32,000 nucleotides of DNA from Aneurinibacillus danicus. Lineage in GTDB: Bacteria > Bacillota > Bacilli > Aneurinibacillales > Aneurinibacillaceae. The stretch spans positions 1 through 32,000 of the forward strand of contig NZ_BJXX01000047.1 in assembly GCF_007991215.1 (NCBI RefSeq), in the 5' to 3' direction. The first letter of the stretch is position 1. Every line of letters begins with the position of its first letter. The notes under the pieces were generated by a model. The model had not been told where the DNA came from. It searched no databases and saw nothing but the letters and a program-made list of their open reading frames with translations. Shown here one piece after another: positions 1,491 to 19,786 of this stretch. Made by a program: the position numbers and the translations under genes.

Positions 1491-1517
1491 TGCGACGTTC
1501 CTATGCTGCATTTTTGT

Positions 1518-1548: not shown

Positions 1549-1585
1549 TTTGTATGAAGATTACACACAGAAAGGGGAAAGAGAA

Positions 1586-2665
1586 ATGGTAACAGGTAAA
1601 GAAAATCAGAAGAAAAAGAAGAGAGGGGTACTGTGCGGCCTGGCTGTTAGTATGCTGGCTTTGGCACTCAGCGGATGCGGCAATGCTTCCAAGGAGGCGC
1701 AGACAACAACCGGCGCTGCTTCGCCCCCGAAAGAAACCGTGCAACTTTTGAACGTATCGTACGATCCAACGCGTGAATTATACCAAGAATATGACAAGGC
1801 GTTCGCACAGTATTGGAAGACGAAAACTGGGCAGACAGTAAACATTAAGCAATCGCATGGAGGTTCTGGAAAGCAGGCACGGGCTGTCATTGACGGCTTG
1901 GAAGCCGATGTGGTTACGCTGGCCCTCGCGTATGATATCGATGCGATTCAAAAGAAGGGTTTAATTCAAAAAGATTGGCAGAAACGATTGGCCTCCAACA
2001 GCTCACCGTATACTTCCACCATCGTCTTTCTTGTTCGAAAAGGCAACCCAAAAGGAATCAAAGATTGGGATGACTTGGCGAAACCGGGCATCTCTGTGAT
2101 TACGCCTAATCCAAAGACATCAGGGGGTGCAAGGTGGAATTACCTGGCGGCTTGGGGCTATGCATTGAAGAAGCAAGGAGGAGATGAAAACCAGGCAAAA
2201 GCGTTTGTTACACGCATTCTTAAAAATGTGCCGGTGCTGGATTCTGGAGCGCGGGGAGCGACAACGACTTTCGTTGAACGGGGCATTGGTGATGTGCTGA
2301 TTACATGGGAAAATGACGCGCTGCTTGCCGTTAATAAGCTGGGGAAAGGAAATTTCGAAATCGTCAACCCGTCGTTGAGTATTCTGGCTGAACCGCCTGT
2401 CGCCGTGGTGGATAAAGTCGTCGATAAACGCGGCACGCGCAAAGTGGCGGAAGAATATCTTTCGTATTTATATTCAGAAGAAGGCCAGGAAATCGCCGCG
2501 AAAAACTACTATCGCCCGCATTCTGCTTCCGTTGCAGCCAAGTATGAAAAGCAATTCCCGAAAATTGCGACATTTACTATCGATGAACTGTTTGGCGGAT
2601 GGGAGAAAGCACAGCAGACGCATTTTTCCGACGGAGGCATCTTTGACCAAATCTACAAACCGTAA
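1586..2665 (+). CDS. cysP: sulfate/thiosulfate ABC transporter substrate-binding lipoprotein
   Basis: The ATG at 1586 follows AAAGGGGAAAGAG. The ORF-track start at 1490 lies inside the riboswitch and is rejected. Signal peptide with lipobox LALSGC. Strong family resemblance to Sbp/CysP ([28 protein letters not shown]). Confidence 0.9.
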
Positions 2666-2680
2666 CACAAGGAGAAAGAC

Positions 2681-3523
2681 ATGAAACGAGGATGGAAACA
2701 ATTCAGCGTCCTACCCGGCTTTTCCATATCATTAGGGTTTACCCTGCTTTATCTAAGCATACTGGTTCTTCTCCCGCTGTCCGCCGTCTTTTTAAAGACG
2801 GCGACGATGGGATGGGAGGCGTTCTGGTCGACAATAACGGATCAAAGGGTACTGGCGTCCTATCGTCTTAGTTTTGGGGCCGCTTTTGCTGCTGCACTGA
2901 TTAATGTTGTATTCGGCCTGCTTGTGGCCTGGGTGCTGGTTCGGTATTCTTTTCCGGGCAAACGAGTCATTGATGGACTGGTCGATTTGCCGTTCGCGCT
3001 GCCAACTGCTGTGGCAGGTATTGCGCTGACGGCCATCTATTCTGAGAATGGCGTCGTCGGCCATTATTTACAGACCATTGGCGTCAAGGTTGCCTTTACG
3101 CCGCTCGGAGTCATTGTTGCGCTTACCTTTATTGGGTTGCCTTTTGTGGTGCGAACGGTGCAGCCGGTATTGGAAGATGTAGATAGACATGTGGAGGAAG
3201 CGGCTGCCTCGCTCGGCGCAACGAGATGGCAGACGTTTCGCAGGGTTATTCTGCCGGAGTTGTACCCTGCACTGCTGACAGGGTTTGCGCTGGCATTAGC
3301 CCGGGCGCTTGGAGAATACGGATCGGTGGTGTTTATTTCCGGGAACATGCCGATGTACACGGAAATTACGCCGCTGCTGATTATGAGCAAGCTGGAGCAG
3401 TTCGATTACGCAGGGGCCACGGCGCTTGCCGTCGTTATGCTGCTTGCCTCGTTTGTGATGCTCCTGTTCATTAATATCATTCAATGGCGTACCGGTCATC
3501 GCCGTACTGCCAAAGGGGGGTAA
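2681..3523 (+). CDS. cysT: sulfate ABC transporter permease CysT
   Basis: Polytopic membrane protein with the EAA loop (EEAAASLGATRWQTFRRVILPEL). Its position follows the SBP gene. Confidence 0.9.
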   Translation: MKRGWKQFSVLPGFSISLGFTLLYLSILVLLPLSAVFLKTATMGWEAFWSTITDQRVLASYRLSFGAAFAAALINVVFGLLVAWVLVRYSFPGKRVIDGLVDLPFALPTAVAGIALTAIYSENGVVGHYLQTIGVKVAFTPLGVIVALTFIGLPFVVRTVQPVLEDVDRHVEEAAASLGATRWQTFRRVILPELYPALLTGFALALARALGEYGSVVFISGNMPMYTEITPLLIMSKLEQFDYAGATALAVVMLLASFVMLLFINIIQWRTGHRRTAKGG

Positions 3524-3526
3524 GAG

Positions 3527-4396
3527 ATGGCGAATCCGATTCTGGTATCATCGAGAAGGCAAACGGAAGTCGTCAACGTGGCATCAAAGAAAGAGGGAAT
3601 TGTACGTTGGGTACTCATCGGTATGGCTTTGCTCTTTCTTCTTCTTTTCCTGGTACTTCCGCTGGTTATCGTATTCTATGAAGCTTTGCAGGATGGGATA
3701 GAGATGTATCTTGCTTCGATTGCGGAACCGGATGCACAGGCTGCGATTGCCCTCACGTTACTTACGGCCGCGATTGCCGTGCCGTTAAATCTTGTATTTG
3801 GGGTCGCCGCTTCCTGGGCGATTGCCAAGTTTGAATTTCGGGGAAAAAATATTTTGTTGACCCTGATCGATTTGCCCTTTGCCGTTTCGCCGGTCATCTC
3901 CGGGTTGATGTTTGTGCTACTGTTCGGTATGGAGGGAATGTTTGCCCCTTGGCTTGAAGCCTATAACATGAAAATTGTTTTTGCCGTGCCGGGGATTGTG
4001 TTGGCCACCATATTTGTGACGTTTCCTTTTATCGCCCGCGAGCTTATTCCGCTGATGCAAGCCCAGGGAACGGAGGAAGAAGAAGCGGCGCGCATGCTTG
4101 GAGCGAACGGTTGGCAGATATTTTTTCGGGTGACGCTTCCTAATATCAAATGGGGCCTATTGTATGGCGTAATTCTATGCAATGCGAGGGCCATGGGCGA
4201 ATTCGGGGCCGTGTCGGTCGTATCGGGTCATATTCGGGGATTAACCAATACGATGCCGCTGCACGTAGAGATTTTGTACAACGAATACAATTTCGCCGCT
4301 GCTTTTTCTGTCGCATCGCTTCTGGCGCTTCTGGCCATCGTGACATTGGTGGTGAAAGGTGTGGTCGAGTGGAGAACGGCTCGCCGGGGACATTAA
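3527..4396 (+). CDS. cysW: sulfate ABC transporter permease CysW
   Basis: Second permease paralog with the EAA loop ([24 protein letters not shown]). There is a 3-nt gap from cysT. Confidence 0.9.
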
Positions 4397-4408
4397 GGGG
4401 GGTAAAAA

Positions 4409-5548
4409 ATGAGCATTGAAATCAAAGCACTGAATAAGAAATACGGCAATTTTACAGCGTTACACGAAATTGATCTCGTCATTCCTGAAGGTGAACTTGT
4501 CGCGTTGCTCGGTCCGTCAGGTTCCGGAAAAACGACGCTGCTGCGGATCATTGGCGGGATGGAAATTCCGGATTCCGGCAATGTTTTATTCGGTGGAGAA
4601 GCAGAAGCACAAAGAAAAATAGCAGCACCTCGTATCGGGTTTGTATTTCAAAATTACGCTCTCTTCCGTCACATGACAGTCTTTGATAATGTGGCGTTTG
4701 GTCTAAAGGTTCGACCGCGCAGACTCCGCCCGTCCAAGAAGGAAATTCGCGTGAAAGTGGCTGAGCTTCTTAAGCTGGTGCAACTGGAAGGGCTGGAGAA
4801 TCGGTATCCGGACCAATTATCCGGCGGGCAGCGACAGCGTGTGGCGTTGGCCCGGGCACTGGCGATTGAGCCGCAAGTATTGCTGCTTGATGAGCCGTTT
4901 GGGGCGCTGGATGCGAAAGTGCGCCAGGAACTGCGGCGTTGGTTGCGGCAGCTACATCATGAATTGGACATTACTACAATTTTTGTGACACATGACCAGG
5001 AAGAAGCGTTGGAAGTGGCGGATCAAGTTGTGGTTATGAATCAGGGGAAGGTGGAGCAAGTCGGAACGCCGTGGGAAGTGTATCAGCAGCCTGCTAATCC
5101 GTTTGTGTATCAGTTTTTAGGTCAAGTGAATCAAGTGCGTGGTCGGATTCAAGATGGGAAAGCGAAGTTTGATTCCTTGGAATGGGATCTGTCCGGGTAT
5201 CATCATCCAGACGGCAAGGAATGTATCGCATTTGTTCGTCCACATGAAGTGGAGATTACCACCGAACCAGCGGCACAGAGATTACAGGCAAGAGTGACAC
5301 AGGTATACCCGGTAGGTGCGCGAGTCAGGTTGGAGGTAGAAATAAAAGGAAATTCTGTGCCGATTGAAGTCGATATTACGGAAGAGTACTGGCAGCAGAG
5401 TGGGCTGGCACAAAACCGATCGGTCTTCATTGCTTTCAAGAAGCCGCGAATTTTTATTGAAGGAAGCGGATTTGTTGACCTGGACATATCTGACGGCTCA
5501 TTTCTTTCTGAAAATCTAAGTACAAATAAACGCGTTCATATCTCTTAG
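4409..5548 (+). CDS. cysA: sulfate ABC transporter ATP-binding protein CysA
   Basis: Walker [10 protein letters not shown], signature [15 protein letters not shown], Walker [12 protein letters not shown], and a C-terminal regulatory (TOBE-like) extension. Confidence 0.9.
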
Positions 5549-5720
5549 GTATGGGAGCGATTCTACCTTATTTTTTGTGAAATTCTCTCTTTTCCTTCGT
5601 ACCACAAAAGTCAAGCCATCCTTCCCACGGTTTTTTATGTCGGGGTTGCGGCTGAGACGCCATGATGGTTTTCTGACAGTCAAAAACAAAGTGATCTCAT
5701 AAGGGGAAGGGGGTGTTTAT

Positions 5721-5924
5721 GTGTCCGCAGAAAAAGAAGAACGAAACCAAACGATCGATTATATTTTGGATGCGCTGCAAGGACTGCAATATGGATCGAT
5801 TCAAATCACCATCCATGATTCAAAAATTACACAAATCGATCGTTTGGAAAAGCAACGCTTCCCATTTCAGCGGTCGTCTTCTTCAACAACTGATGTATCG
5901 AGATTCTCGTCTAAAAGAAAGTAA
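5721..5924 (+). CDS. yezD: YezD family (DUF2292) small protein
   Basis: GTG start at 5721 after the AAGGGGGTG SD. The 67-aa product contains YILDALQGLQYGSIQITIHDSKITQIDRLEKQR, typical of YezD-like proteins that accompany sulfur-assimilation genes. No clear terminator separates it from cysA. Confidence 0.75.
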   Translation: MSAEKEERNQTIDYILDALQGLQYGSIQITIHDSKITQIDRLEKQRFPFQRSSSSTTDVSRFSSKRK

Positions 5925-5960
5925 CAAACGAAACCACACCGACAGCCGATCGGTCAACCG

Positions 5961-6011
5961 AAGGCTCCGGCTCTACTTGCCTGCCAGTACGCAAGGGAGC
6001 GGGAGCCTTTT
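5961..6011 (+). terminator. probable terminator after yezD
   Basis: Long hairpin AAGGCTCCGGCTC...GAGCGGGAGCCTT (12 of 13 bp) with an inner CTTGC/GCAAG stem, followed by TTTTG. Confidence 0.55.
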
Positions 6012-6060
6012 GTATGTACATTACACTTGACTTATCAACATTCTTATTGTGGTACGAAGG

Positions 6061-6092
6061 AAAACAGAGAGCAGGGCAATTTCTTGCCCTGC
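6061..6092 (-). terminator. probable terminator of the DUF2325 gene
   Basis: Perfect 9-bp stem GCAGGGCAA-tttc-TTGCCCTGC. On the minus strand it is followed by TCTCTGTTTT. Confidence 0.55.
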
Positions 6093-6149
6093 GCCTTGGT
6101 TTGCCCGGGAAGGGTGAGCGGCTTGTTCTGAAAGCGGATAGGTTTGTTT

Positions 6150-6446
6150 TCATGAGGTAACGAGTTTAGTGCCTTTCTTCAGTGCGCCTGTAGCCCCAAA
6201 ACCTTGATGATACGCAATGGGTTTGCCAAGCTTTTCTGCAACTTCACGTACTGTCCACATGCTTGGGTGGCTAAGCGCTCCGGCCATTACGACGACACAA
6301 TCCGCTTTTCGTAAAATAGGGAGAAATTCTTTCGCTTTTTTCTTACTGGTTTTTCCATCGTGAAAAATAACATGGTATCCTTCCTTTTGTGCTAACTTTT
6401 GCAGGGTGCGTTTTTGGCTTCCGCCGATAATTGCGATCGTCTTCAT
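6150..6446 (-). CDS. DUF2325 domain protein
   Basis: Preferred start is MKTIAIIGG (ATG at 6446) after the GGAAGGAG SD. The pattern IIGG...HDG...ADCVVVM...SH matches the DUF2325 family as I know it. Confidence 0.7.
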   Translation of the reverse strand: MKTIAIIGGSQKRTLQKLAQKEGYHVIFHDGKTSKKKAKEFLPILRKADCVVVMAGALSHPSMWTVREVAEKLGKPIAYHQGFGATGALKKGTKLVTS

Positions 6447-6714
6447 ACTATCTGCTCCTTCCTGTTTCATTGTCGCGATTACCGATGTTTTTTAAATCAT
6501 ATCATTTTTTTTTCGAATTTCAAATAAATATAATAAGAATACTTGGAATTATTTTTGATTTTGTGTATAGTTTATTTACAGAGAGAAGGTTTTCACCGGT
6601 TGATGAAGAAAGGGGGATAGAACAAACAAGGAAGTCAAAATTGCACAACAGGATACTGATGAAAAATCCGACTTTTAGGCTGCATTATATAGCATTTGAA
6701 CTGCATAAAAATGA

Positions 6715-6822
6715 TTCTTATCAAGAGAGGCGGAGGGACATGGCCCGATGAAGCCTCAGCGACCACAGGCAGATGCCTGCACGGTGCTACATCCAGCGGG
6801 TGGGAAACCTGAGAGATAAGAA
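6715..6822 (+). promoter_or_regulatory. SAM-I (S-box) riboswitch aptamer 2 (divergent copy)
   Basis: TTCTTATCAAGAGAGGCGGAGGGACATGGCCCGATGAAGCCTCAGCGACC...ACGGTGCTACATCCAGC...GAGAGATAAGAA. The P1 arms are TTCTTATC / GATAAGAA. There is one extra base in the GGGAC(A)TGGCCC element, and P3/P4 differ from copies 1 and 3. Confidence 0.85.
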
Positions 6823-6844
6823 GAGGCTTTTGATACATGGAAAA

Positions 6845-6867
6845 ACCTCTTCTCGAGGTCTTTTTTT
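6845..6867 (+). terminator. expression-platform terminator of S-box 2 (short stem; also usable on the minus strand)
   Basis: ACCTC-ttctc-GAGGT followed by C and T7. The antiterminator would pair AGAAGAGG (6819-6826, overlapping the P1 3' arm) with CCTCTTCT (6846-6853). A-run / T-run flanks make the hairpin bidirectional. Confidence 0.6.
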
Positions 6868-6909
6868 ATGTCGGCATGAACACGTGTATGAAAAGCGAAA
6901 AAGGTAGTG

Positions 6910-7089
6910 ATGAACAATATGGAAGAAATAAGAGAAAGGCTGCAGGAGAAACTGTTCCAGAAAGGGATCTATAAAGGGGAAGATGGGCGCCATTTTTATG
7001 AGTGCACGATCGAGGAAATTATATTGTTATGTCGGATTCACCTGGGAGAACGTGAGTTGTTTAATATGGAGGATGAATACAGGATATAA
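6910..7089 (+). CDS. small hypothetical protein (59 aa), the only ORF downstream of S-box 2
   Basis: ATG at 6910 with a weak AAAGG SD. The product is charged and helical-looking (MNNMEEIRERLQEKLFQKGIYKGEDGRHFYECTIEEIILLCRIHLGERELFNMEDEYRI). No family recognised. Confidence 0.45.
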   Translation: MNNMEEIRERLQEKLFQKGIYKGEDGRHFYECTIEEIILLCRIHLGERELFNMEDEYRI

Positions 7090-7149
7090 CAATTTAGCCC
7101 TAATGAATCCCTCTGTCGGTCTCGTTCGTAATGGATATATATTGAACCT

Positions 7150-7182
7150 CTCATGGCTAAAGCCACGAGATTCTTGGTTAGT
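7150..7182 (+). repeat. direct repeat copy 1 (hairpin unit CTCATGGC-taaa-GCCACGAG plus tail)
   Basis: CTCATGGCTAAAGCCACGAGATTCTTGGTTAGT. Matches 7469-7502 at about 26 of 34 positions. Both copies fold into an 8-bp hairpin with the same internal A-C mismatch and a tetraloop. Confidence 0.7.
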
Positions 7183-7468
7183 CCGTTCTACTGAACAGAA
7201 TTAGTACATGATGTACCACCAAGCTATCCCCGCAGTTCCTGCGGTTGTTACAAACCTTGTACGTTGGACTCGGCACGCTGACGTACTGCTTGGTTTTCGC
7301 TTTTCGGTCAGCGTGGCGTGTGAAGGTTGAATGTTTTACGTGACAGACCGATTTCCTGTCACAACCCCATACATTCAGTTTTCAATGAGCAATCTGTACA
7401 AATATATTATACCATCCAGTCGGACTTGCGAGAAGGCTAAAACCTTCCCTTGTCCGAAGCCGATTCAT

Positions 7469-7502
7469 CTCATGGCTGAAGTCACGAGTGTTCTCGGCTA
7501 AT
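7469..7502 (+). repeat. direct repeat copy 2 (hairpin unit CTCATGGC-tgaa-GTCACGAG plus tail)
   Basis: CTCATGGCTGAAGTCACGAGTGTTCTCGGCTAAT. The inner hairpin is enclosed by an outer AGCCGA...TCGGCT stem (7459-7464 / 7494-7499). Confidence 0.7.
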
Positions 7503-7538
7503 TCATAAAAATGAGTAGATTAATGGAATAAAACCAAG

Positions 7539-7567
7539 TTGACAAATGTTAATTATCGACTTAAAAT
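7539..7567 (+). promoter_or_regulatory. sigma-A type promoter for S-box 3 operon
   Basis: TTGACA (7539-7544), 17-nt spacer, TAAAAT (7562-7567). Confidence 0.75.
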
Positions 7568-7595
7568 AAAAATGTCGTAATTATATAAAAATATA

Positions 7596-7699
7596 TTCTC
7601 TTATCGAGAGAGGCGGAGGGACTGGCCCGATGAAACCTCGGCAACCGATATAAAGTCGGTGCCAATTCCAGCAGACACACAGTTCTGAAAGATAAGAGG
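7596..7699 (+). promoter_or_regulatory. SAM-I (S-box) riboswitch aptamer 3
   Basis: TTCTCTTATCGAGAGAGGCGGAGGGACTGGCCCGATGAAACCTCGGCAACC...GGTGCCAATTCCAGC...AAAGATAAGAGG. The 5' 49-nt core differs from copy 1 at only 2 positions. Confidence 0.95.
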
Positions 7700-7726
7700 T
7701 TGGATTCTGGTAAAATGCAATCATAT

Positions 7727-7761
7727 AACCAACCTTTTATCTTTTAGAAGGTTGGTTTTTT
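7727..7761 (+). terminator. expression-platform terminator of S-box 3
   Basis: AACCAACCTT-ttatcttttag-AAGGTTGGTT followed by TTTT. The antiterminator pairs AAGAGGTTGG with CCAACCTTTT. Confidence 0.85.
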
Positions 7762-7789
7762 ATTGGCAATTTTACACAAGGAGGAGAAA

Positions 7790-8809
7790 ATGAGTCAGAT
7801 TGTAGAAAACAAAAAAGATATGTATTTGTACGGCTGGGCCGATCCGGACGAAATGCGAGCCTATCGCAGACAGCACAAATCAGTAGAAAAAAAGGACAAA
7901 CGAGTAGCATTAAAACAGGCCATTGAACAGGGCGTAAAGCCGGGAGACTATATTGTTTTTGGCGGAATGGGGTCAGTACGGACGCCAATGGCTGCTGTAT
8001 ATGAAATCATTCGTCAGGGAATCGGCGATTTAACCGTAGGCGCAAAAGGCTCACAGCATGACTGGAACCTGCTTACGGCAGCGGGCCTTGTCAGCCGAGC
8101 AGAGGTTGCATACGGATTTGGCGATGAGATTCGGGGACTCTCCCGCCCGGCGCGTGCAGCAGTTGAAAGCGGGCAGCTCTCTGTTATCTCTGAGACGACC
8201 AATGCAGCTTTTCAATGGCGGTTTACTGCGGCCATGAAAGGCTTATCGTTCTATCCCACCCGTACCGCTATCGGAACCGATACGCTGCATTATAGCGGAT
8301 CGAAGAAAATTGAAGACCCATTTACCGGCAAGCCGATCGAATTAATTCCGGCATGCTATCCGGATGTGGTGATTCTTCATGTACACCGGGCAGATAAGTA
8401 TGGAAATTGCCAAATCGACGGCAATATAACTGAAGATTTTGAACTCGCACATGCTGCCAAGCACGTAATCATTACAACGGAAAGGATTATCCCGGAAGAA
8501 GAAATTACACGCCGTCCGGACTTGACCAAAATTCCTTATTTTGTGGTTGATGCGGTTGTAGAAGTGCCGTACGGCTCGCATCCGAATCAGGTGCCGTACT
8601 TGTATTCCTTTGATGAACAACACTGGCAGGAATGGCTGGATGCGTCTCTTACGGATGAAGGGGTAAAGGATTATCTGCACCGCTATATTCTTGGGACGGA
8701 AGACCATTACGAATATCTTGAAAAAATCGGAGGTCTTTGCAGGCTCCGTCAGCTAGAACATATCGAACATGGCATCGAAAAATACCCGAAAGTTGCAAAA
8801 AGGAGGTAA
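7790..8809 (+). CDS. family I CoA-transferase, subunit A (glutaconate CoA-transferase GctA-like)
   Basis: ATG at 7790 after AAGGAGGAG. The track start at 7763 lies in the terminator tail. The 339-aa size and the FGGMGSVRTPMAAVYEIIRQG... N-terminal fold motif fit the long GctA-type A subunits. Confidence 0.8.
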   Translation: MSQIVENKKDMYLYGWADPDEMRAYRRQHKSVEKKDKRVALKQAIEQGVKPGDYIVFGGMGSVRTPMAAVYEIIRQGIGDLTVGAKGSQHDWNLLTAAGLVSRAEVAYGFGDEIRGLSRPARAAVESGQLSVISETTNAAFQWRFTAAMKGLSFYPTRTAIGTDTLHYSGSKKIEDPFTGKPIELIPACYPDVVILHVHRADKYGNCQIDGNITEDFELAHAAKHVIITTERIIPEEEITRRPDLTKIPYFVVDAVVEVPYGSHPNQVPYLYSFDEQHWQEWLDASLTDEGVKDYLHRYILGTEDHYEYLEKIGGLCRLRQLEHIEHGIEKYPKVAKRR

Positions 8810-8815
8810 ACAGCG

Positions 8816-9574
8816 ATGGCTACAGATACGGAACGCATGATTGTGGCTTCGGCAAGACTACTGGAGGATAACAAAAGCGTGTTCGTTGGCACCGGTATGC
8901 CCATGCTGTCGGCTTCGCTTGCACAGCGCCTTCATGCGCCGGGATTGCTTACGATTTATGAAGGGGGCGGCGTAGGCGGACAGCCGGAAGGGCGACTCCC
9001 CATTCAGGTTAGCGAATCGTTGACTTTCCAAAACGGGGTCATCGTCGGGTCAATGGATTATGTCATGAGCCTGGCGCAGGCCGGGTACATTGAATATGGA
9101 TTCCTGGGCGGGGCTGAAATCGATCCGTACGGCAACCTTAACACTACCGTCATCGGGTCCTGGGAGAATCCGAAGGTTCGCCTGCCGGGTTCGGGCGGCG
9201 GTTCCGATATCGCCTCCCTCTGCTGGCGTACCATTATTTTGATGCGTCAGGACAAACGAAAATTCACGCCGAAGCTGAACTTCTTAACCAGTCCGGGGTA
9301 TTTAGACGGACCAGGCGCACGGGAGAGAAGCGGACTTCCGGCGAATACCGGCCCGTATCGTGTCGTGACGCAGCTTGGCGTATACGGGTTTCCGGAAGAG
9401 ACACGCCGTATGACACTTTTGCAGATATATGAAGGAGTTACGATAGAAGATGTGCAGGCCAACAGTGGATTTGATATTGATATTCATCCCGATGTAGAGA
9501 CGATTCCTGATCCTACGGAAGAAGAGGTAAACCAAATGTACAATTTGGATCCGGATGGCATTGTCCTTGCCTGA
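8816..9574 (+). CDS. family I CoA-transferase, subunit B (GctB-like)
   Basis: 6-nt gap from subunit A and an AAAGGAGG SD. The 252-aa size and the motifs VGTGMPMLSA...GGAEIDPYGNLNTT...LPGSGGGSDIA are typical of B subunits. Confidence 0.8.
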   Translation: MATDTERMIVASARLLEDNKSVFVGTGMPMLSASLAQRLHAPGLLTIYEGGGVGGQPEGRLPIQVSESLTFQNGVIVGSMDYVMSLAQAGYIEYGFLGGAEIDPYGNLNTTVIGSWENPKVRLPGSGGGSDIASLCWRTIILMRQDKRKFTPKLNFLTSPGYLDGPGARERSGLPANTGPYRVVTQLGVYGFPEETRRMTLLQIYEGVTIEDVQANSGFDIDIHPDVETIPDPTEEEVNQMYNLDPDGIVLA

Positions 9575-9641
9575 TGGACGGGAGAGAAAGATAACACACA
9601 TACAAAAAACCAAGTTTATACATATGAAAAGGGGGTAAAAA

Positions 9642-10754
9642 ATGAAACAGTCGATAAAATGGTGGGGAACGGGGTTACTCGCGCTCTCTCTGCTAGGAGG
9701 GGTAACAGCGTGCGCGCCTCAGGAGGGGAAAAATAGCGCGTCCGCTCCTGTTCACAATGAAACAAAAGAAAACAGCAAGAGTCCAGAGCAAAAAGAAGTA
9801 GTGAAAATTGGCCACCTTCCTTCCTCGGGACACGCCTTATACTTTATTGCCCAGGAAGAAGGCTTTTTCGAAAAAGAGGGCCTTAAGGCAGAGTTGCATG
9901 CATTTACCAATTCAGGGGAAGGCATCAATGCCGTGTTGTCCGGCAAATTGGACTCTGGCTCGTTCGGTACTGCGGCACCGCTGACGTTCCTTGATAAAGA
10001 TGCGGATCTTACCATGTACGCAGGCACCATGGGGACAGGTGCTGCACTGGTTGCGAAGCCGGAACATGCGGATCGCTTTAAAGATTTGCATACATTAAAA
10101 GGAAAGAAAATCGGAACTGTGCGTCTGGCCACCGGCGATGCTGTACTACGCGGTGCCCTTGCGCAGCAAGGACTAAACCTTGAAAAAGATGTCAAGATTA
10201 TAGAGTTCGACTCCCCAAAGGCGGTCATTGAGGGTGTGAAAAAAGGAAGTTTGGATGCCGGGGTAGTATGGACGCCGTTTATTCAGCTTGCTACGAAGCA
10301 GGGGCTGGCGATTACAAGCTATTCGAATGAACTATTCCCTGATCATCCGTGCTGCCGTGTCATCGCAAAATCAGAAAACATAAAAACAAACCCGGAAAAA
10401 TACGTAAAAATTGTAAAAGCGCTTATTCAGGCAGAAAAATTCAAGCAAGAAAATAAAGAGAAGACAGTGGCGGATGTAGCAAAATATATCAATGTGGACA
10501 AAGACACATTAGAGAAAGATTTGTATGGCGGATATCAAGTTAGCTCGGCAGATCCGAATCAAGACGGTGTATTTAAATTTGCCGAGCAGATGCAAACCGT
10601 GGGCTACATCAAAGATGCGACAAAGGTGCATGACCACTTTACTACCGATATTTATGCAACCGCATTGGCCGAGCTGCAAAAAGAGTATCCGCAGGATCCG
10701 TTCTATAAACAAGCGCAGCAAACCTTTACCGCCGCCAATCATGGGCATCATTGA
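9642..10754 (+). CDS. ABC transporter substrate-binding lipoprotein, NitT/TauT (SsuA/NMT1-like) family
   Basis: Signal peptide with lipobox GVTAC. SsuA-like periplasmic-binding fold motifs. 370 aa. Confidence 0.8.
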   Translation: MKQSIKWWGTGLLALSLLGGVTACAPQEGKNSASAPVHNETKENSKSPEQKEVVKIGHLPSSGHALYFIAQEEGFFEKEGLKAELHAFTNSGEGINAVLSGKLDSGSFGTAAPLTFLDKDADLTMYAGTMGTGAALVAKPEHADRFKDLHTLKGKKIGTVRLATGDAVLRGALAQQGLNLEKDVKIIEFDSPKAVIEGVKKGSLDAGVVWTPFIQLATKQGLAITSYSNELFPDHPCCRVIAKSENIKTNPEKYVKIVKALIQAEKFKQENKEKTVADVAKYINVDKDTLEKDLYGGYQVSSADPNQDGVFKFAEQMQTVGYIKDATKVHDHFTTDIYATALAELQKEYPQDPFYKQAQQTFTAANHGHH

Positions 10755-10768
10755 GAAAGGAGAACAAA

Positions 10769-11578
10769 ATGAACGGGCTTAGCATCGAAGGCGTATCCAA
10801 AGTTTTTGCAACCGGAAAGAAAGAACAATTTGTGGCGCTTGACCGGGTCAGTCTCACGATCCAACAGGGTGAATTTTTTGCCCTGTTGGGTCCGAGCGGA
10901 TGTGGAAAGTCGACCCTGCTTCATATATTGGCGGGGTTATCTGAGCCGTCCCAGGGCTGCGTTCTGTGGCAGGGACATAAAATTCAAGGTCCTGGACTTG
11001 ACCGCGGCGTTGTGTTTCAAACGTACTCCCTTTTCCCATGGATGACGGCGGAGGACAATTTACTCTTTGCGCTGAAACAAAAGGAAAGAAAGGGAGCCAG
11101 GCGGGATCACCAGGAGCGGGTCCGCCATATCCTTGACCAGGTCGGACTAAGCGGTTCAGAAAAGAAATATCCCATTCAACTGTCCGGCGGCCAACAGCAG
11201 CGGGTAGCCATCGCCCGTGCGCTTTTGCTCGAAGCGCCGCTTCTGCTGCTGGATGAACCCTTTGGCGCGCTGGATGCTATTTCCCGTGCGCAGCTACAGG
11301 AGCTTCTTTTGCGGCTTTGGCAGGAAAAAAAGCCGAAGCCCACGGTAATTATGGTTACGCATGATCTGGACGAAGCGATTTACCTATCCGATCGGATTGC
11401 CGTTCTGGCAGCCAATCCGGGGCGCATAACTGAATTGATTGCGATTCCATGGGCGAGGCCGCGCAAACGTAATGAGCTTTTGAGCAATCCGGAGCTACTC
11501 GATATTCGCGCCCGCCTTCTTAGCCTGCTGCAGGGAGAAGACGTTTCGGGACAGCAAGGGAGGGTTGCCGGATGGTAG
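10769..11578 (+). CDS. ABC transporter ATP-binding protein (NitT/TauT family)
   Basis: ATG at 10769 after AAAGGAG. Walker [10 protein letters not shown], signature [15 protein letters not shown], Walker [12 protein letters not shown]. Confidence 0.9.
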   Translation: MNGLSIEGVSKVFATGKKEQFVALDRVSLTIQQGEFFALLGPSGCGKSTLLHILAGLSEPSQGCVLWQGHKIQGPGLDRGVVFQTYSLFPWMTAEDNLLFALKQKERKGARRDHQERVRHILDQVGLSGSEKKYPIQLSGGQQQRVAIARALLLEAPLLLLDEPFGALDAISRAQLQELLLRLWQEKKPKPTVIMVTHDLDEAIYLSDRIAVLAANPGRITELIAIPWARPRKRNELLSNPELLDIRARLLSLLQGEDVSGQQGRVAGW

Positions 11579-12303
11579 GGTGGTTGCCGCTTCTTCTTAT
11601 CGGTATCGTATGGTATATCACAACGGATGTTTTCCAATGGTTAGATCCTTTTTTATTTCCGGGTCCGACAGCCGTACTGTCGATAATTGGGGAAGACTAT
11701 CCTTTCCTTTTCACCAGTTTGCTCTCATCCCTTACTCTTTTATTTGTTTCGTTTGGCTGCGCTATCGTTACGGCTATTCCGCTCGGACTGCTTGTTGGAC
11801 AAAGCAAACGGATCGAGCGGCTTATCCATCCATTCACAAATCTGGCTAGTCCGATTCCACCGATCGTATACATTCCGTATGCAGTGGCGCTGCTGCCGAC
11901 ATTCTGGCTCGCCTCCTCTTTTATTCTTTATATCGGGGCGTTCTGGCCGGTTTTTTTAAATACCGTGAACGGAGTCAAGCAGATTGACCACCGGCTACTG
12001 GATTCCGCGCATACCCTTGGCATTTCGAGAAAAGATTGGTACGCCAAAATTTTGTTGCCTGGAGCGATGCCCAGCATTTTTTCCGGGATGACGATCGGTC
12101 TTGTTCTTTCATTTATTCTGCTTACGGCGGCGGAAATTGTGGGGGGATCTTCCGGTCTCGGATGGTATGTAAAAAACTATAGTGATTTTGGGGATTATCC
12201 ACGTGTCGTCTCCGGGATTCTCTTTATCGGCCTGGTTGTAGCAGGACTCACGCAGATTATGCGGCGGACGGAGCGTTATGTGCTGCGCTGGCGTGAACGT
12301 TAG
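11572..12303 (+). CDS. ABC transporter permease (NitT/TauT family)
   Basis: The ATG overlaps the ATPase stop by 7 nt (ATGGTAG), suggesting translational coupling. About six TM segments, SsuC/TauC-like. Confidence 0.85.
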   Translation: MVGWLPLLLIGIVWYITTDVFQWLDPFLFPGPTAVLSIIGEDYPFLFTSLLSSLTLLFVSFGCAIVTAIPLGLLVGQSKRIERLIHPFTNLASPIPPIVYIPYAVALLPTFWLASSFILYIGAFWPVFLNTVNGVKQIDHRLLDSAHTLGISRKDWYAKILLPGAMPSIFSGMTIGLVLSFILLTAAEIVGGSSGLGWYVKNYSDFGDYPRVVSGILFIGLVVAGLTQIMRRTERYVLRWRER

Positions 12304-12339
12304 TCCCGGGAACAAAAAATAATTCGTTTTGAAAGGGGA

Positions 12340-13140
12340 ATGTTTCACTTGTCTATTCAAACAGAGGCCTATCAACATATTTTATTTGAAATTGAAGGGG
12401 CGATTGCTTATGTAACCATGAATCGTCCGGCCCAAAGAAATGCTCTTTCTCTTGAACATATGAAAGAGTTGCTCCACTGCTTTAAACAAATACAAGAAAA
12501 CCGTTCTGTTGCTGTTGTCGTATTGCGCGGCGCCGGGCCTGCTTTTTGCGCCGGTCACGATTTGAAAGAAATGAGAGGAGAGACGGCGTCATTCTATCGG
12601 AATTTATTTGGAGTTTGCAGTGAACTCATGGAAACGATTCAGACAATCCCACAGCCGGTTATTGCACAGGTGCAGGGTATCGCCACCGCCGCCGGCTGCC
12701 AGTTGGTAGCGACGTGCGATCTTGCTGTGGCAGCGGATACGGCTGTTTTTGCGACCCCGGGCGTGAAAATCGGTTTGTTTTGCTCTACACCGATGGTGGC
12801 TCTTTCCCGTGCCATCGGCCGCAAGAAAGCGATGGAGATGCTTTTGACAGGAGAGGCAATGTCGGCTCAGGATGCCGTAGCCGCCGGACTCATTAACCGG
12901 GCTGTGGCGGAAGAGAAGCTGACGGAAGCGACAGAAGCGCTTGCCCGCAAAATCGCGGAAGCCAGTCCGTATACGGTCGGAATCGGCAAGCAAGCCTTCT
13001 ATAAACAGATGGAGATGCCACAGTCTCTTGCCTACTCTTTTGCTCGTGAAGTGATGAGTGTAAATGCAGTAGCGGAAGATGCGCATGAAGGCATTTGCGC
13101 CTTTCTCGAAAAGCGTCCTCCGATCTGGAGAGGGCGCTAA
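12340..13140 (+). CDS. crotonase-superfamily (enoyl-CoA hydratase/isomerase fold) protein lacking the canonical hydratase glutamates
   Basis: The oxyanion-hole segment GAGPAFCAGHDL is present. Where hydratases have GGGxE and P-E, this protein has AAGCQ (Q121, nt 12700-12702) and TPG (G141). Confidence 0.85.
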   Translation: MFHLSIQTEAYQHILFEIEGAIAYVTMNRPAQRNALSLEHMKELLHCFKQIQENRSVAVVVLRGAGPAFCAGHDLKEMRGETASFYRNLFGVCSELMETIQTIPQPVIAQVQGIATAAGCQLVATCDLAVAADTAVFATPGVKIGLFCSTPMVALSRAIGRKKAMEMLLTGEAMSAQDAVAAGLINRAVAEEKLTEATEALARKIAEASPYTVGIGKQAFYKQMEMPQSLAYSFAREVMSVNAVAEDAHEGICAFLEKRPPIWRGR

Positions 13141-13220
13141 TCATACTATGCATTTCCGTAGCTCTAACAAAACCCCTGCCTTTTATCACCGAAAGGCGTG
13201 TTGATCCATCCAGTGATTTT

Positions 13221-13260
13221 TTATTCTTACTTGACTTATCGGAATATAAATGTTTATAAT
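13221..13260 (+). promoter_or_regulatory. ssu promoter overlapped by a CymR-box-like site
   Basis: TTGACT (13231-13236), 18-nt spacer, TATAAT (13255-13260). The 27-mer TTATTCTTACTTGACTTATCGGAATAT (13221-13247) matches 16 of 18 specified positions of the B. subtilis CymR consensus as I recall it (TAAWNCNNANTWNANNNATMGGAATTW). Confidence 0.5.
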
Positions 13261-13304
13261 GTGAGAAATTGATAGCATTTTAGATGGCCGATCAGTCAAC
13301 TGAA

Positions 13305-13351
13305 GGCTCTGTTATTTTGCCTGTGTTTGCAAAATGATAGAGTCTTTTTTT
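13305..13351 (+). terminator. leader (attenuator-type) terminator in the ssuD 5' UTR
   Basis: GGCTCT-gtt-ATTTTGC-ctgtgttt-GCAAAAT-gat-AGAGTC followed by T7. It lies between the promoter and the ssuD ATG at 13407. Confidence 0.55.
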
Positions 13352-13406
13352 GTTGTTTTTGCTTCGTCATTATCGAAGACATTACTAAAAAGGAGAGGCG
13401 GAGAAA

Positions 13407-14591
13407 ATGTCAACAGCGGTACAGGATGTAGAATTTGGATGGTTTATTCCTACGACAGGCGATGGGAAATATATTGGAACAGAATTAGAACGCGAGTCTA
13501 CAGCAGGTTACATGATTCAGGTAGCGCAGGCTGCCGAAGAGGCGGGCTATACGTTTGCGCTTATTCCGACAGGAGGCGGCTGCCTGGATGCCTGGATTGT
13601 AGGCTCGGCTATCGCAACCCATACCAAGGTATTGCGTCCGCTGGTGGCTATGCGTCCAGGTCTTATTTCACCGATTACGGCGGCGCGTATGGCGACATCC
13701 CTCGATTACATTTCCAACGGAAGAGTCGCCATTAACGTAGTAACGGGCGGTACACCACCGGATCTTGTGGCGATGGGCGATCCGCTGGCGTTCTCGCATG
13801 ACGAAAGATACGAAAGAACGCTGGAATTCATGACCATCGTAAAAGAGGTGCTGATTAACTCTAATACACATAAGTCTAAATATCTGGCTGCAAATGAAAA
13901 TTACCGGGAAATCAAAAAAGTTCATTTTAAAGGGAAATATTATGAGATTGAGGGCGGGGCCAGTTACCCCCCTCCCGTACAAAAACCGCATCCGCCGATT
14001 TACTTTGGTGGCAGTTCAGTAGCCGGAAAACGCACAGCCGCCGAAATCGCGGATGTTTACCTGATGTGGCCGGAGCCGCTGGGATGGATTGAAGAGCAAA
14101 TCGACGAAATGGAACGCATTCGTAAGGAGCTTCGGCAGGAAAAAGGGATCGACCGCCAGCTCCGTTACGGTCTGCGGGCTCAGGTACTCGTCCGGGAAAC
14201 GGAAGAGGCGGCCTGGGCAGCCGCATGGGAAATTATCAGTAAAGTAGACAAAAAAGCGGTAGAACAATCCAACGTGCGATTTACCCAAACCGATGCAGTA
14301 GGGCAGAAAAGACAAAACCAGCTTCGCAGCGAATCAGAGGAAAATGGGTATGTGATTGCTCCGAATCTTTGGGCGGGCTTATCCATCGTACGGGGAGGCG
14401 GCGCTATGATGCTGGTAGGAACGCCTGAGCAAGTGGCTGACCGTATTATTGAATATGTGGACGCTGGCATCTCCTCCTTTATTTTTTCCGGTTACCCAAA
14501 TCTGGAAGAAGCAGAAATCACAGGGAAGCTTTTATTGCCCGTCGTAAAAAGAAAGCTGCAGCAGCAAAAAAATACCACCGTTCAGCTTTAA
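13407..14591 (+). CDS. ssuD: FMNH2-dependent alkanesulfonate monooxygenase (LLM class)
   Basis: Collinear resemblance to B. subtilis/E. coli SsuD (WFIPT.GDG.Y.G, HDERYE, PHPPIYFGGSS, NLWAG...VRGGG..LVG, FIFSGYP.LEEA). Confidence 0.9.
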   Translation: MSTAVQDVEFGWFIPTTGDGKYIGTELERESTAGYMIQVAQAAEEAGYTFALIPTGGGCLDAWIVGSAIATHTKVLRPLVAMRPGLISPITAARMATSLDYISNGRVAINVVTGGTPPDLVAMGDPLAFSHDERYERTLEFMTIVKEVLINSNTHKSKYLAANENYREIKKVHFKGKYYEIEGGASYPPPVQKPHPPIYFGGSSVAGKRTAAEIADVYLMWPEPLGWIEEQIDEMERIRKELRQEKGIDRQLRYGLRAQVLVRETEEAAWAAAWEIISKVDKKAVEQSNVRFTQTDAVGQKRQNQLRSESEENGYVIAPNLWAGLSIVRGGGAMMLVGTPEQVADRIIEYVDAGISSFIFSGYPNLEEAEITGKLLLPVVKRKLQQQKNTTVQL

Positions 14592-14627
14592 CGATGAACA
14601 ATATCTGCGAGAGAGGAGAAAAGAGAC

Positions 14628-15407
14628 TTGACGCAATCTGCAGAACTGCGCATTGACTCGCTTCATAAATCGTTTACGAACCCGCAGGGCAGAATTCATG
14701 TGCTGGATAACATCAATGCTAAGATAAAGCCCGGGGAGTTTATCACGGTGATTGGACCAAGCGGATGCGGAAAAAGCACATTGCTTAAAATTATCGCCGG
14801 GCTGGATACGGATTACGAAGGAGCAGCCATTCTCGGCGGTAAGAAAATCGAGCGTCCCGGCATTAACCAGGGGTTTATTTTTCAGGAACACCGTTTATTT
14901 CCCTGGTTGACGGTAGAGAAGAACATCGCCGCCGATTTATCTTTGAAAGACCCGGAAATCCGCAACCGTGTGGATGAATTGATTCGTGTTGTACGCCTTG
15001 AAGGATTTGAGAAGGCGTACCCGCGGGAATTGTCCGGAGGAATGTCCCAGCGTGTGGCGATTGCGAGAGCACTTCTGCGCAGACCCGCCATTCTTCTTTT
15101 GGATGAACCGTTCGGAGCTTTGGATGCCTTTACCCGCAATCACCTTCAGGATGTTTTATTGGACATCTGGCGGCGGAACAAAACAACGATGATCCTTGTT
15201 ACCCATGATATCGACGAGTCCATCTATCTTGCCAATCGGGTCTTCATCATGAGTCCGCGGCCGGGAAGGATCAGCAAAATCATTCCTGTCCATCTTCCCT
15301 ATCCCCGTGCGCGGGCGGGCACTTGCTTTCAGGAGATTCGACAACGAGTGATGAGCGAATTCGAAAAAATAGAAGAAGCTCAGTTTATCGGTGGGTCGGG
15401 TATATAA
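14628..15407 (+). CDS. ssuB: aliphatic sulfonate ABC transporter ATP-binding protein
   Basis: TTG start at 14628 after GAGAGGAG. Walker [10 protein letters not shown], signature [15 protein letters not shown], Walker [12 protein letters not shown]. Confidence 0.85.
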
Positions 15408-17551: not shown

Positions 17552-18838
17552 ATGTCTCTTTATTTTTTTGAACCAACGTTAGAATGCGCCCGGCAGTTGG
17601 ATCAAAACGATAGACTTTCCCGCTTTCGCAGCGAGTTTTACTTACCTCCTACCTCCATTTACATGGATGGAAATTCGCTGGGCCTTCTTTCCAAGAGAGC
17701 GGAGAAAACATTGTTGGAATCTCTGGATGATTGGAGAGAGCTGGGGATTGGCGGATGGAGCAGAGGAAACCATCGCTGGTTTTATCTGTCAGAGCGACTG
17801 GGGGAGATGAGTGCGCCATTAGTGGGAGCTGCTCCTGATGAAGTAATCGTAACTGGCTCTACCACGGTGAATTTACATCAACTGGTGGCTACTTTCTATC
17901 AGCCCGAAGGAAAACGAACCAGGATTCTAGCGGATGAGCTTACTTTTCCATCCGATATTTATGCGCTGCAAAGCCAGCTTCGTCTGCACGGATACGAGCC
18001 GGATACGCATCTTATTCAGGTAAGAAGCCGGAATGGCAGATTCCTTGAAGAGGAAGATATCATTGCCGCTATGACGGACGAGATTGCTCTCGTTATCCTG
18101 CCGACCGTTCTTTACCGCAGTGGTCAAATCCTGGATATGGAGCGATTGACAAAGGAAGCCCATGCCCGCGGAATTTTGATCGGATTCGACGGATGCCATT
18201 CCATTGGGGCAATCCCGCATTCCTTTAGTGAATGGGGTGTAGATTTTGCTTACTGGTGCAACTACAAGTATGTAAACGGCGGTCCCGGCTGTGTGGGTGG
18301 ATTGTATGTTAATCGGAAGCATTTCGGGCGTCATCCAGGTCTGGCCGGGTGGTTCGGTTCAAAAAAAGACAAACAGTTTGACATGGAGCATACGCTGACG
18401 CCGGCGGAAACAGCGGGTGCTTATCAAATTGGAACGCCCCATATATTGAGTCTTGCTCCTTTGATCGGCTCTCTGGAAATTTTTGCAGAGGCTGGCATTG
18501 AGAACATTCGCCGGAAATCCCTGCATATGACCCGGTATTTGATGGATTTGCTTGAACACGAGCTTCCGAATATGGGTTTTGTCATTGGAAATCCGAGAGA
18601 TGACAGGCGCCGGGGAGGGCACATTAGCCTTGAGCACGAAGAGGCCGCGCGCATCTGCAAATCGCTGAAAGAAAACGGTGTCATTCCCGATTTTCGTGCG
18701 CCTAACATGATTCGTCTTGCGCCGATCGCGCTCTATACCTCTTATGCGGAGATTTGGAAAGCCGTACAAACGCTGAAAAATATAATGGAAGAAAAACAAT
18801 ACAAAAAATTTAAGAACGAGCGCGAAGTGATCGCTTAA
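17552..18838 (+). CDS. kynU: kynureninase
   Basis: 428 aa with an AGGAGG SD. Typical kynureninase N-terminus and PLP region ([11 protein letters not shown]). Confidence 0.9.
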
Positions 18839-18904
18839 TTATCAAGTGGAATTAGCCGAAAGCGGATAAAAAGCCCATTTGTGAAAGCGGAGGGGGAAAA
18901 CGTC

Positions 18905-19762: not shown

Positions 19763-19786
19763 GCGGAGTCCAACGGAGGGGTACCG

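Follow-up and report, generated by a model that had tools for sequence, protein, structure and literature searches.

The 32,000-nucleotide (nt) stretch of Aneurinibacillus danicus DNA analysed here (contig NZ_BJXX01000047.1, positions 1 to 32,000; hereafter the window) contains, at 7539-13140, an S-box riboswitch of the S-adenosylmethionine I (SAM-I) class followed by six closely packed genes. These encode a two-subunit coenzyme A (CoA) transferase, an ATP-binding cassette (ABC) importer of the NitT/TauT class with its binding lipoprotein, ATPase and permease, and a crotonase-fold protein. An initial annotation of this DNA had placed a promoter, an S-box and a terminator/antiterminator ahead of six same-strand genes, and all of these elements were located; its gene families and intergenic gaps (6, 67, 14, -7 and 36 nt) were reproduced exactly. 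No convincing internal terminator was found within the six-gene operon. The features are as follows.

7539-7567, + strand: sigma-A-type promoter-like site TTGACA-17-TAAAAT, 11/12 matches, 31 nt 5' of the aptamer
7598-7698, + strand: S-box (SAM-I) riboswitch aptamer, Rfam RF00162, 90.1 bits, E = 1.9e-20
7683-7748, + strand: antiterminator helix, in which 7683-7704 (3' strand of P1 plus GGUUGG) pairs with 7728-7748
7727-7763, + strand: intrinsic terminator, consisting of a hairpin at 7727-7757 (13 pairs, loop of 5, -16.6 kcal/mol) and a U-run
7790-8809, + strand: CoA-transferase alpha subunit, GctA-like, 339 amino acids (aa), PF01144 101 bits, ATG start with ribosome-binding site AAGGAGG
8816-9574, + strand: CoA-transferase beta subunit, GctB-like, 252 aa, PF01144 95 bits
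9642-10754, + strand: NitT/TauT-class lipoprotein binding protein, NMT1_2/SsuA-like, NMT1_2 108 bits, lipobox LLGGVTAC
10769-11578, + strand: ABC ATPase of NitT/TauT type, PF00005 124 bits
11572-12303, + strand: ABC permease of NitT/TauT type, PF00528
12340-13140, + strand: ECHDC3-type crotonase-fold protein, PF00378 217 bits, NF006008 369 bits
13302-13347, + strand: 19-pair hairpin and T-run, the sole good terminator 3' of the crotonase gene

The exact alpha-subunit protein is present on 18 contigs, and the locus recurs on several metagenome contigs.

The riboswitch leader

The aptamer scores above the RF00162 gathering score of 44.4 and matches the model over its full length (model positions 1-108). 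Because promoter-like matches are not enriched across the region (10 found versus 9.8 expected from shuffles), the site at 7539-7567 is supported by its position and by its recurrence in the closest relative (locus L052), where TTGACT-17-TAAAAT lies 35 nt before that locus's own S-box. The antiterminator is the minimum-free-energy fold of the ligand-free leader (z = -6.0). Its 7728-7748 strand is the 5' half of the terminator, and the 3' strand of P1 is common to aptamer and antiterminator; the leader therefore has the layout of a classic antiterminator/terminator competition. From this layout the operon is predicted to be repressed by SAM through transcription termination, with low SAM favoring the antiterminator and transcription of all six genes. 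The description of the locus as a riboswitch-controlled operon can be held with high confidence.

Association of the S-box with the CoA-transferase pair

Related loci were retrieved through orthologues of the alpha subunit (30 genome and 80 metagenome loci), their genes were placed by tblastn, and S-boxes were sought with a covariance model derived from the three examples in the window, with Rfam confirmation on a subset. The alpha-subunit orthologues form a tight Bacillales clade at 63-91% identity, after which identity drops to approximately 55% (Chloroflexota and archaea). An S-box heads the CoA-transferase operon in 26 of the 29 Bacillales genome loci, two of the other three being contigs that start inside the upstream gene, and in all eight in-clade metagenome loci that have upstream sequence (8/8). 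The expectation of the initial annotation that the S-box link would persist in orthologous clusters is thereby borne out. Among loci below 60% identity the element was found in 0 of 68, and distant loci inspected gene by gene likewise lack it; it is thus confined to the >63% clade, with 34 positive loci against 0/68 outside. The conserved core is the S-box together with the GctAB-like pair, which is clade-wide and specific. Such nearly constant control makes it quite probable, on sequence evidence, that this Bacillales CoA-transferase clade constitutes a dedicated methionine/sulfur-supply module and not a part of general acyl-CoA metabolism.

One in-clade locus stands apart. L035, from the Bacillota metagenome-assembled genome (MAG) TL1-5.bin58 (4800-8200; 66% identity, high GC content), shows no detectable S-box or other Rfam riboswitch and is the only in-clade locus lacking a detectable riboswitch despite adequate upstream sequence. 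Its gene order is also reversed, with a pair resembling AibA and AibB (the AibAB-like pair) first and the alpha and beta subunit genes (A and B) following.

The S-box regulon of Bacillales comprises metNPQ, metIC, metE, metK, the mtn genes, and the cysH operon, and to our knowledge neither a CoA-transferase nor an ECHDC3-type crotonase nor an AibAB-like pair is among its members. The present leader shares with that regulon the aptamer family and the terminator/antiterminator logic, and in relatives it heads metQ, metN, metI, and msrA. The difference lies in the cargo, which here consists of a GctAB-like CoA-transferase and an ECHDC3-type crotonase and, in relatives, the AibAB-like pair. A literature search found nothing linking S-box or SAM riboswitches to CoA-transferase or crotonase genes, with the 2004 Gram-positive methionine-regulon paper and the regulon databases, which may mention such a link, lying outside its scope. 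Within that compass, the finding agrees with the initial annotation, which knew of no such genes in the described S-box regulon.

Operon architectures and modularity

Four architectures were distinguished among the related loci. In type A, that of the window, the S-box is followed by A, B, the binding protein, the ATPase, the permease, and the crotonase. Type B occurs in five genomes (L012, L014, L015, L019, and L022), namely Calidifontibacillus, Schinkia azotoformans, an Alkalihalobacillus MAG, and two further MAGs; crotonase, A, and B lie on one strand, binding protein, ATPase, and permease are divergent from them, and each half has a separate S-box. No other evidence speaks as strongly for a connection among the six gene families as their recurrence in this independent layout. 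Type C, present in 19 of the 29 genomes and including Siminovitchia, Sporosarcina, and Oceanobacillus, has the order S-box, in some loci DUF2292 or MsrA, then MetQ, MetN with a NIL domain, MetI, A, B, the AibAB-like pair, and in some loci an OsmC-like protein. Type D, found in Aneurinibacillus thermoaerophilus and relatives, consists of an S-box, a MetQ-like lipoprotein, A, B, and a class I aminotransferase. In addition, in Cerasibacillus terrae (L131) an S-box heads the importer genes only, and next to them lies a truncated CoA-transferase remnant with an S-box of its own.

Across the loci mapped, the crotonase and the AibAB-like pair are mutually exclusive, and the partners of the CoA-transferase share a methionine theme (MetQ/MetN(NIL)/MetI, MsrA, and the aminotransferase). 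The recurrence that the initial annotation had proposed to look for, of an S-box with a GctAB-like pair, a NitT/TauT importer, and this crotonase, is observed in the five type-B genomes but not as a fixed six-gene module. The unit it described is accordingly narrower than first drawn: the constant part is the CoA-transferase pair, and most relatives carry MetQNI and the AibAB-like pair instead of the importer and crotonase.

Several further features of these loci concern the S-box regulon more broadly. A third S-box in L131 (10230-12787) heads a gene of the OsmC-like (seleno)protein family and a sodium/solute symporter gene; OsmC-like genes also terminate many type-C operons and are a recurrent S-box regulon member. 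Tandem S-boxes precede the metQNI-CoA-transferase operon in L008 (6424-7389), L057 (428-799), and L058 (3847-4341), with the order S-box, msrA, S-box, metQ in L008 and an S-box spacing of 260-380 nt in L057 and L058. Two candidates in type-D loci were set aside. The aminotransferase was considered as a PatB-type C-S lyase and rejected, its best matches being MocR-domain, MppQ, and LysN-like aminotransferases, and a 76-aa open reading frame (ORF) belongs to no family, has a low-complexity basic sequence, and is probably not a gene.

The CoA-transferase pair

The two adjacent subunits score well over the PF01144 cutoff of 23 bits, and the nearest solved structure for both is the glutaconate CoA-transferase GctAB of Acidaminococcus fermentans (1poi; 145 bits for 1poi_A and 170 bits for 1poi_B). 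Glu49 of the beta subunit, in the motif IYEGGG, aligns with the CoA-carrying Glu in VESG of GctB, and the window protein also has a GSGGGSD motif, so that both the catalytic beta-Glu and the GSGG motif of GctAB are retained. The Glu motif, [VI][YF]EGGG, is kept in 51 of 51 aligned beta subunits of the S-box clade. The pair is most likely a working CoA-transferase, as judged from these conserved residues. GctAB is, however, only a moderate relative, the window host is an aerobe, and the pair here is S-box-controlled; no genes for 2-hydroxyglutaryl-CoA dehydratase or glutaconyl-CoA decarboxylase were found in the window or in the related loci mapped. Database names for homologues are acetate/3-ketoacid CoA-transferases.

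The crotonase and the AibAB-like pair

The PF00378 match spans the whole protein encoded at 12340-13140, which places it in the crotonase superfamily (ECH_1 fold), and its score against NF006008 (PRK08139) exceeds the cutoff of 313 bits. The nearest solved structures are M. smegmatis 3myb (240 bits) and human ECHDC3 2vx2 (232 bits), with which, as with NF006008, it has in common the subfamily signature GHDL, AAGCQLVA, FATPG, and GLFCSTP. Within this family, only the window and type-B members sit in a riboswitch-controlled sulfur context. No published biochemical function for ECHDC3 or any other subfamily member was found in the literature search.

The catalytic positions were located with the core sequence of rat enoyl-CoA hydratase (ECH) as an alignment ruler. 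Where the hydratase glutamates align (ECH Glu144/Glu164, corresponding to DmdD Glu121/Glu141), the window protein has Gln121 and Gly141. Both substitutions recur in the type-B crotonases, although these have only 47% identity to the one in the window, and also in human ECHDC3 and a Chloroflexota homologue. The initial annotation had likened this protein to DmdD, an enzyme that requires both Glu121 and Glu141 (PMC3660561); with these replaced by Gln and Gly, the analogy fails mechanistically and survives only as a likeness of fold. Its companion statement, that the operon is not a copy of the Dmd pathway, is upheld by domain and family profiles, which detect neither an AMP-binding ligase nor an acyl-CoA dehydrogenase in the operon. 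What would be shared with DmdB, DmdC, and DmdD is a sulfur-bearing propionate handled as a CoA thioester, with a crotonase fold at the step of sulfur release (PMC3660561), whereas the window has a CoA-transferase in place of the ligase, no acyl-CoA dehydrogenase, and no Glu/Glu crotonase.

The second pair of type-C operons is nearest to AibA and AibB, the 3-methylglutaconyl-CoA decarboxylase of Myxococcus xanthus (5mzw; 119 and 107 bits). Like AibAB it lacks the catalytic Glu, LSI[PA]GG replacing the Glu motif, and it therefore probably acts on a CoA thioester instead of transferring CoA. This pair is absent from the window, and it is approximately 30% identical to the window's A/B pair.

The importer and its clostridial relatives

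The importer belongs to the NitT/TauT class by its NMT1_2, NMT1, ABC_tran, and BPD_transp_1 domains. Its binding protein had been called SsuA-like, and the class assignment stands, but with 137.4 bits the protein falls below the SsuA family cutoff (TIGR01728, 163.5 bits) and is only 28% identical to the genuine SsuA encoded 5 kb downstream, which scores 300 bits. By these measures it belongs to a subfamily distinct from SsuA. The best NCBIfam matches of the ATPase are of the ntrCD, SaoA, and TauB types and those of the permease of the ntrB, TauC, and SaoP types, every one under its cutoff. The binding protein is 100% identical to a protein of Aneurinibacillus sp. UBA3580, and its subfamily is broad: Clostridia, Geobacter, Sporomusa, and methanogens have members that are 44-52% identical to it.

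The orthologue in Acetivibrio (Hungateiclostridium) thermocellus shares 46% identity along the whole protein (332 bits) and has its own ATPase and permease alongside. In this locus (L130; CP013828.1, 404386-419468) DUF2292 is followed by a corrinoid protein, two MtaA/CmuA-type methyltransferases, a RACo activator, DUF1847, and the importer, after which, at 9858-15083, come a PaaK-like acyl-CoA ligase, an aminotransferase nearest to 'methionine aminotransferase' models, and a four-subunit 2-oxoacid:ferredoxin oxidoreductase. In the description of Kountz and Balskus the methyltransferase part is a 'type 1 mlp gene cluster', and for the non-selenium clade that includes H. thermocellum they proposed that it functions in methyl-sulfur metabolism and in salvaging methionine anaerobically; 'CoA' occurs nowhere in the main text of that paper (PMC10418091). 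The MtaA-family enzyme MtpA methylates 3-mercaptopropionate to 3-(methylthio)propionate (MTP, also abbreviated MMPA) with a Km of 12 uM, and a family enzyme interconverts the two (bioRxiv 10.1101/548461). The downstream genes suggest a conversion of a carboxylate to an acyl-CoA, a 2-oxoacid, and finally an amino acid by reductive carboxylation, which for 3-methylthiopropionate would possibly run from MMPA-CoA through 4-methylthio-2-oxobutyrate to methionine.

The window has in common with the type 1 mlp cluster of H. thermocellum the subfamily of binding protein, ATPase, and permease. It differs in lacking a corrinoid protein, Mlp (UroD-family) methyltransferases, a RACo/Ram activator, and a 2-oxoacid:ferredoxin oxidoreductase, and in having a CoA-transferase where the cluster has a PaaK-like ligase. 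In Geobacter, the binding-protein family occurs among UroD-type methyltransferases, a DsrE protein, a rhodanese, a NifH-like protein, and a PALP enzyme. The presence of this importer subfamily beside a CoA-activating enzyme and sulfur/methionine genes in two distant lineages supports a small thio-substituted carboxylate as the ligand.

Proposed pathway and competing explanations

The best overall explanation of the operon, although a tentative one, is SAM-repressed uptake and CoA activation of a 3-thiopropionate, followed by cleavage of the C-S bond on the thioester; inferred are the ligand, the direction in which CoA flows, the chemistry of elimination, and what becomes of the products. The general outline given by the initial annotation is in this way retained and is strengthened by the comparison with relatives. 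At low SAM, read-through of the leader would permit expression of the six genes. The NitT/TauT-class importer would take up a small organosulfur monocarboxylate, most likely MTP or 3-mercaptopropionate, and the CoA-transferase would form its thioester through the conserved beta-subunit glutamate. The ECHDC3-type crotonase would then stabilize the thioester enolate and expel the beta-thiol(ate), giving methanethiol or sulfide together with acryloyl-CoA; in most relatives an AibAB-like pair takes the position of the crotonase. Acryloyl-CoA would donate its CoA to a further molecule of substrate, in the manner of the AcuN/AcuK or CaiB/CaiD cycles, and the freed thiol would enter methionine through O-acylhomoserine sulfhydrylation. 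The specific elimination of a thiol from thiopropionyl-CoA is itself rather doubtful.

Precedents exist for separate parts of this scheme. CaiB and CaiD form a CoA-transferase and crotonase cycle for carnitine. A CoA-transferase and crotonase route for acrylate is provided by AcuN-AcuK (PMC5651017), and in both systems the two enzymes are encoded together, which permits a closed CoA cycle that needs no ATP. Their crotonases are hydratases/dehydratases, however, neither system is riboswitch-controlled, and the transferases CaiB and, probably, AcuN fall in class III, in contrast to the class I two-subunit GctAB type of the window's enzyme. Removal of a sulfur group from a 3-substituted propionyl-CoA, yielding acryloyl-CoA or 3-hydroxypropionyl-CoA, is carried out by the dimethylsulfoniopropionate lyases DddX and DddD, and in DddX the loss of the sulfur group to give acryloyl-CoA is base-catalyzed (PMC8163506). 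These lyases belong to other protein families and have a sulfonium leaving group, and no homology to the window proteins was found. In the Dmd pathway, methanethiol is released from MMPA in a CoA-dependent way (PMC3660561). The proposed substrate has metabolic sources: MTP is formed as a by-product of methionine salvage and its fate is largely unknown, it arises through the nickel form of MtnD and through decarboxylation of the keto-acid precursor of methionine, and in the methionine transamination pathway its breakdown has been assigned to 'an unknown C-S lyase' (PMC6302742).

A number of observations weigh against the thiopropionate scheme. On the chemical side, free acrylate or acryloyl-CoA would be toxic, and a dedicated sink for either is not encoded in the operon region. 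We know of no crotonase that expels a thiol directly from a saturated 3-thioacyl-CoA, and DmdD is unable to release methanethiol from saturated MMPA-CoA (PMC3660561). With regard to the crotonase gene, homologues at 67-74% identity stand alone and without an S-box in several phyla, which suggests a general role and local recruitment. As for the module, most S-box-linked pairs accompany a MetQ-type (amino-acid-type) importer and not the NitT/TauT importer of the window, and four type-C-like genomes as well as the Aneurinibacillus type-D locus have neither the crotonase nor the AibAB-like pair; elimination is therefore not a step that all forms of the module share. The only solved relatives of the binding protein are remote (nitrate, bicarbonate, taurine, and SsuA binders at 25-40 bits, the best at 30-40 bits), from which no ligand is inferable, and no S-box or other riboswitch was found in the A. 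thermocellus locus or in the Geobacter locus. Finally, L052 (SNQW01000027.1), at 91% identity, has another cassette in place of the importer and crotonase: an OscA-like protein, a 411-aa acyl-CoA-dehydrogenase-like flavoprotein, and an 80-aa ORF (9785-11868), followed by the same ssu-like operon as in the window. This exchange indicates that the importer-crotonase block behaves as a swappable cassette between two sulfur-scavenging modules.

The last observation also bears on the possibility that importer, crotonase, and CoA-transferase are co-regulated but functionally separate, each serving sulfur or methionine supply without forming a single pathway. Absence of the importer and crotonase from L052 and from type-C and type-D loci, the importer standing alone under an S-box in Cerasibacillus, and the mostly stand-alone habit of the crotonase clade would all be expected in that case. 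Yet two independent gene orders, those of the window and of type B, place crotonase and CoA-transferase in one predicted transcript, the importer adjoins the transferase in the window, in type B, and in L131, and a CoA-activating enzyme follows the importer in A. thermocellus too. Functional separation of the parts is thus considered unlikely, though by no means negligible.

A different substrate class would be invoked if 3-sulfopropionate, 3-sulfinopropionate, or sulfoacetate were imported and CoA-activated and sulfite were released to general sulfur assimilation, either by the crotonase or, in L052, by the acyl-CoA-dehydrogenase-like protein. The known route for 3-sulfinopropionate in Variovorax and Advenella has a desulfinase acting after a CoA-transferase, which counts in favor of this proposal, as do the NitT/TauT class of the importer, the adjoining SsuD-like monooxygenase and true SsuA importer, and the S-box on sulfate uptake in the window, by which SAM control can mean general sulfur supply. 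L052 adds its OscA-like sulfur-starvation protein and its flavoprotein, which weakly matches 3-sulfinopropanoyl-CoA desulfinase, SfnB, and FadE16; the desulfinase and SfnB matches, however, reach only 88 and 93 bits against cutoffs of 600 and 431. The distance of the binding protein from the neighboring SsuA, the thiol-methyltransferase and methionine-aminotransferase genes around its clostridial relatives, and the company of MetQNI and MsrA, not sulfonate genes, kept by most CoA-transferase orthologues further reduce the sulfonate or sulfinate route to a low probability.

The nearest characterized relatives of the transferase and of the AibAB-like pair act on dicarboxylates (glutaconate for GctAB; AibAB decarboxylates 3-methylglutaconyl-CoA), and they raise the possibility that a thioether dicarboxylate, such as S-(2-carboxyethyl)- or S-(carboxyalkyl)-cysteine/-homocysteine, receives CoA on its distal carboxylate from the GctAB-like enzyme, after which the crotonase or AibAB-like enzyme would decarboxylate the thioester or eliminate cysteine/homocysteine. 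Crotonases that lack both glutamates and have the GHD motif include decarboxylases (methylmalonyl-CoA decarboxylase and ECHDC1), a point in its favor, and the MetQ-type binding proteins and the LysN/MppQ-like aminotransferase in most loci fit an amino-acid-like substrate. Against this, no abundant natural substrate of the kind is established for soil Bacillales, the window importer is not of amino-acid type, and the clostridial PaaK-like ligase and 2-oxoacid:ferredoxin oxidoreductase fit a monocarboxylate better, so that a dicarboxylate substrate is also judged distinctly improbable. Ordinary short-chain or keto-acid acyl-CoA catabolism behind a chance S-box, as the database names and the thiolase and acyl-CoA dehydrogenase neighbors, free of sulfur context, of the ~55%-identity homologues (Chloroflexota and archaea) might suggest, is very hard to reconcile with an S-box kept across four operon architectures and exclusive to the >63% clade (34 loci versus 0/68), and is given almost no credence.

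The thiopropionate scheme can be extended beyond the window, albeit as a long shot, to the proposal that ECHDC3-family crotonases, including the human one, are C-S beta-eliminases that free methanethiol or sulfide from 3-thiopropionyl-CoA and that the clostridial relatives of the importer feed an anaerobic route from MMPA to methionine. If true, the S-box-linked ECHDC3-type members would be the missing enzyme of 3-methylthiopropionate breakdown, and the clostridial route, from 3-mercaptopropionate or MMPA through MMPA-CoA and 4-methylthio-2-oxobutyrate to methionine by reductive carboxylation, would be new.

Genomic surroundings

Two further S-boxes lie upstream of the operon. The first (1385-1489, 101 bits) heads a sulfate-type ABC importer at 1490-5548, which consists of an Sbp-like binding protein, two permeases, and a CysA whose C-terminus carries regulatory and TOBE domains; a small DUF2292/OscA-like gene comes next at 5721-5924. 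SAM control in this organism would thus cover general sulfur acquisition, and by itself it is no argument for a methionine-specific product. The initial annotation had argued for such a product from control of the six-gene operon by SAM and not by CymR, and this argument is weak, given an S-box in the same window that gates a sulfate-type Sbp/CysTWA importer. The other S-box (6715-6822, 86 bits) has its own terminator-like hairpin and T-run (6845-6859) and precedes only a 56-aa Fur_reg_FbpA-like ORF at 6919-7089 (PF13076, 31.5 bits), an unusual cargo. The subsequent ~440 nt (7090-7530) contain no convincing ORF and no Rfam match; they are bounded by a 21-nt direct repeat (7149-7169 and 7468-7488; 90% identical), contain a 15-nt inverted repeat (7268-7282 and 7307-7321), and could be a small mobile-element remnant or an unannotated RNA.

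On the 3' side of the crotonase gene lies an ssu-like operon encoding an SsuD-like monooxygenase and a genuine SsuA-type importer. Its promoter-like site, TTGACT-18-TATAAT, is at 13231-13260 and its start codon at 13407; the hairpin at 13302-13347 lies between them and may be a leader attenuator. The CymR-like site previously noted on this operon was not confirmed: ATCGGAATAT occurs at 13238-13247 in the promoter spacer, and the motif was found 8 times in the window versus 12.4 expected. The ssu-like operon is followed at 17552-20413 by three kynurenine-pathway genes, for kynureninase, tryptophan 2,3-dioxygenase, and a cyclase/kynurenine-formamidase-like protein, with no evident link to the six-gene S-box operon. 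Elsewhere, on the minus strand of the Cerasibacillus locus L131 at 2688-5116, flagellin fragments (Flagellin_N and Flagellin_C) are interspersed with two group I introns (RF00028, 81 and 74 bits), which apparently interrupt the flagellin gene.

Biological significance

The riboswitch itself is of textbook type, and it is the cargo that appears to be new: a clade of class I CoA-transferases that is, by prediction, almost always S-box-controlled and is accompanied, depending on the lineage, by a crotonase, an AibAB-like pair, or neither. A conserved, dedicated CoA-transferase would thereby be added to one of the best-studied riboswitch regulons, with methionine/SAM limitation as a physiological handle, and a CoA-thioester route for the recovery of sulfur from small thio-acids is indicated in soil Bacillales. 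The association also ties the importer subfamily to the 'mlp' methyl-sulfur clusters of anaerobes, where the neighboring ligase, oxidoreductase, and aminotransferase suggest a route to methionine. Moreover, it gives the first hint from gene context at what the ECHDC3 crotonase subfamily, the human mitochondrial protein among its members, may do, and likewise for AibAB-like proteins outside myxobacteria.

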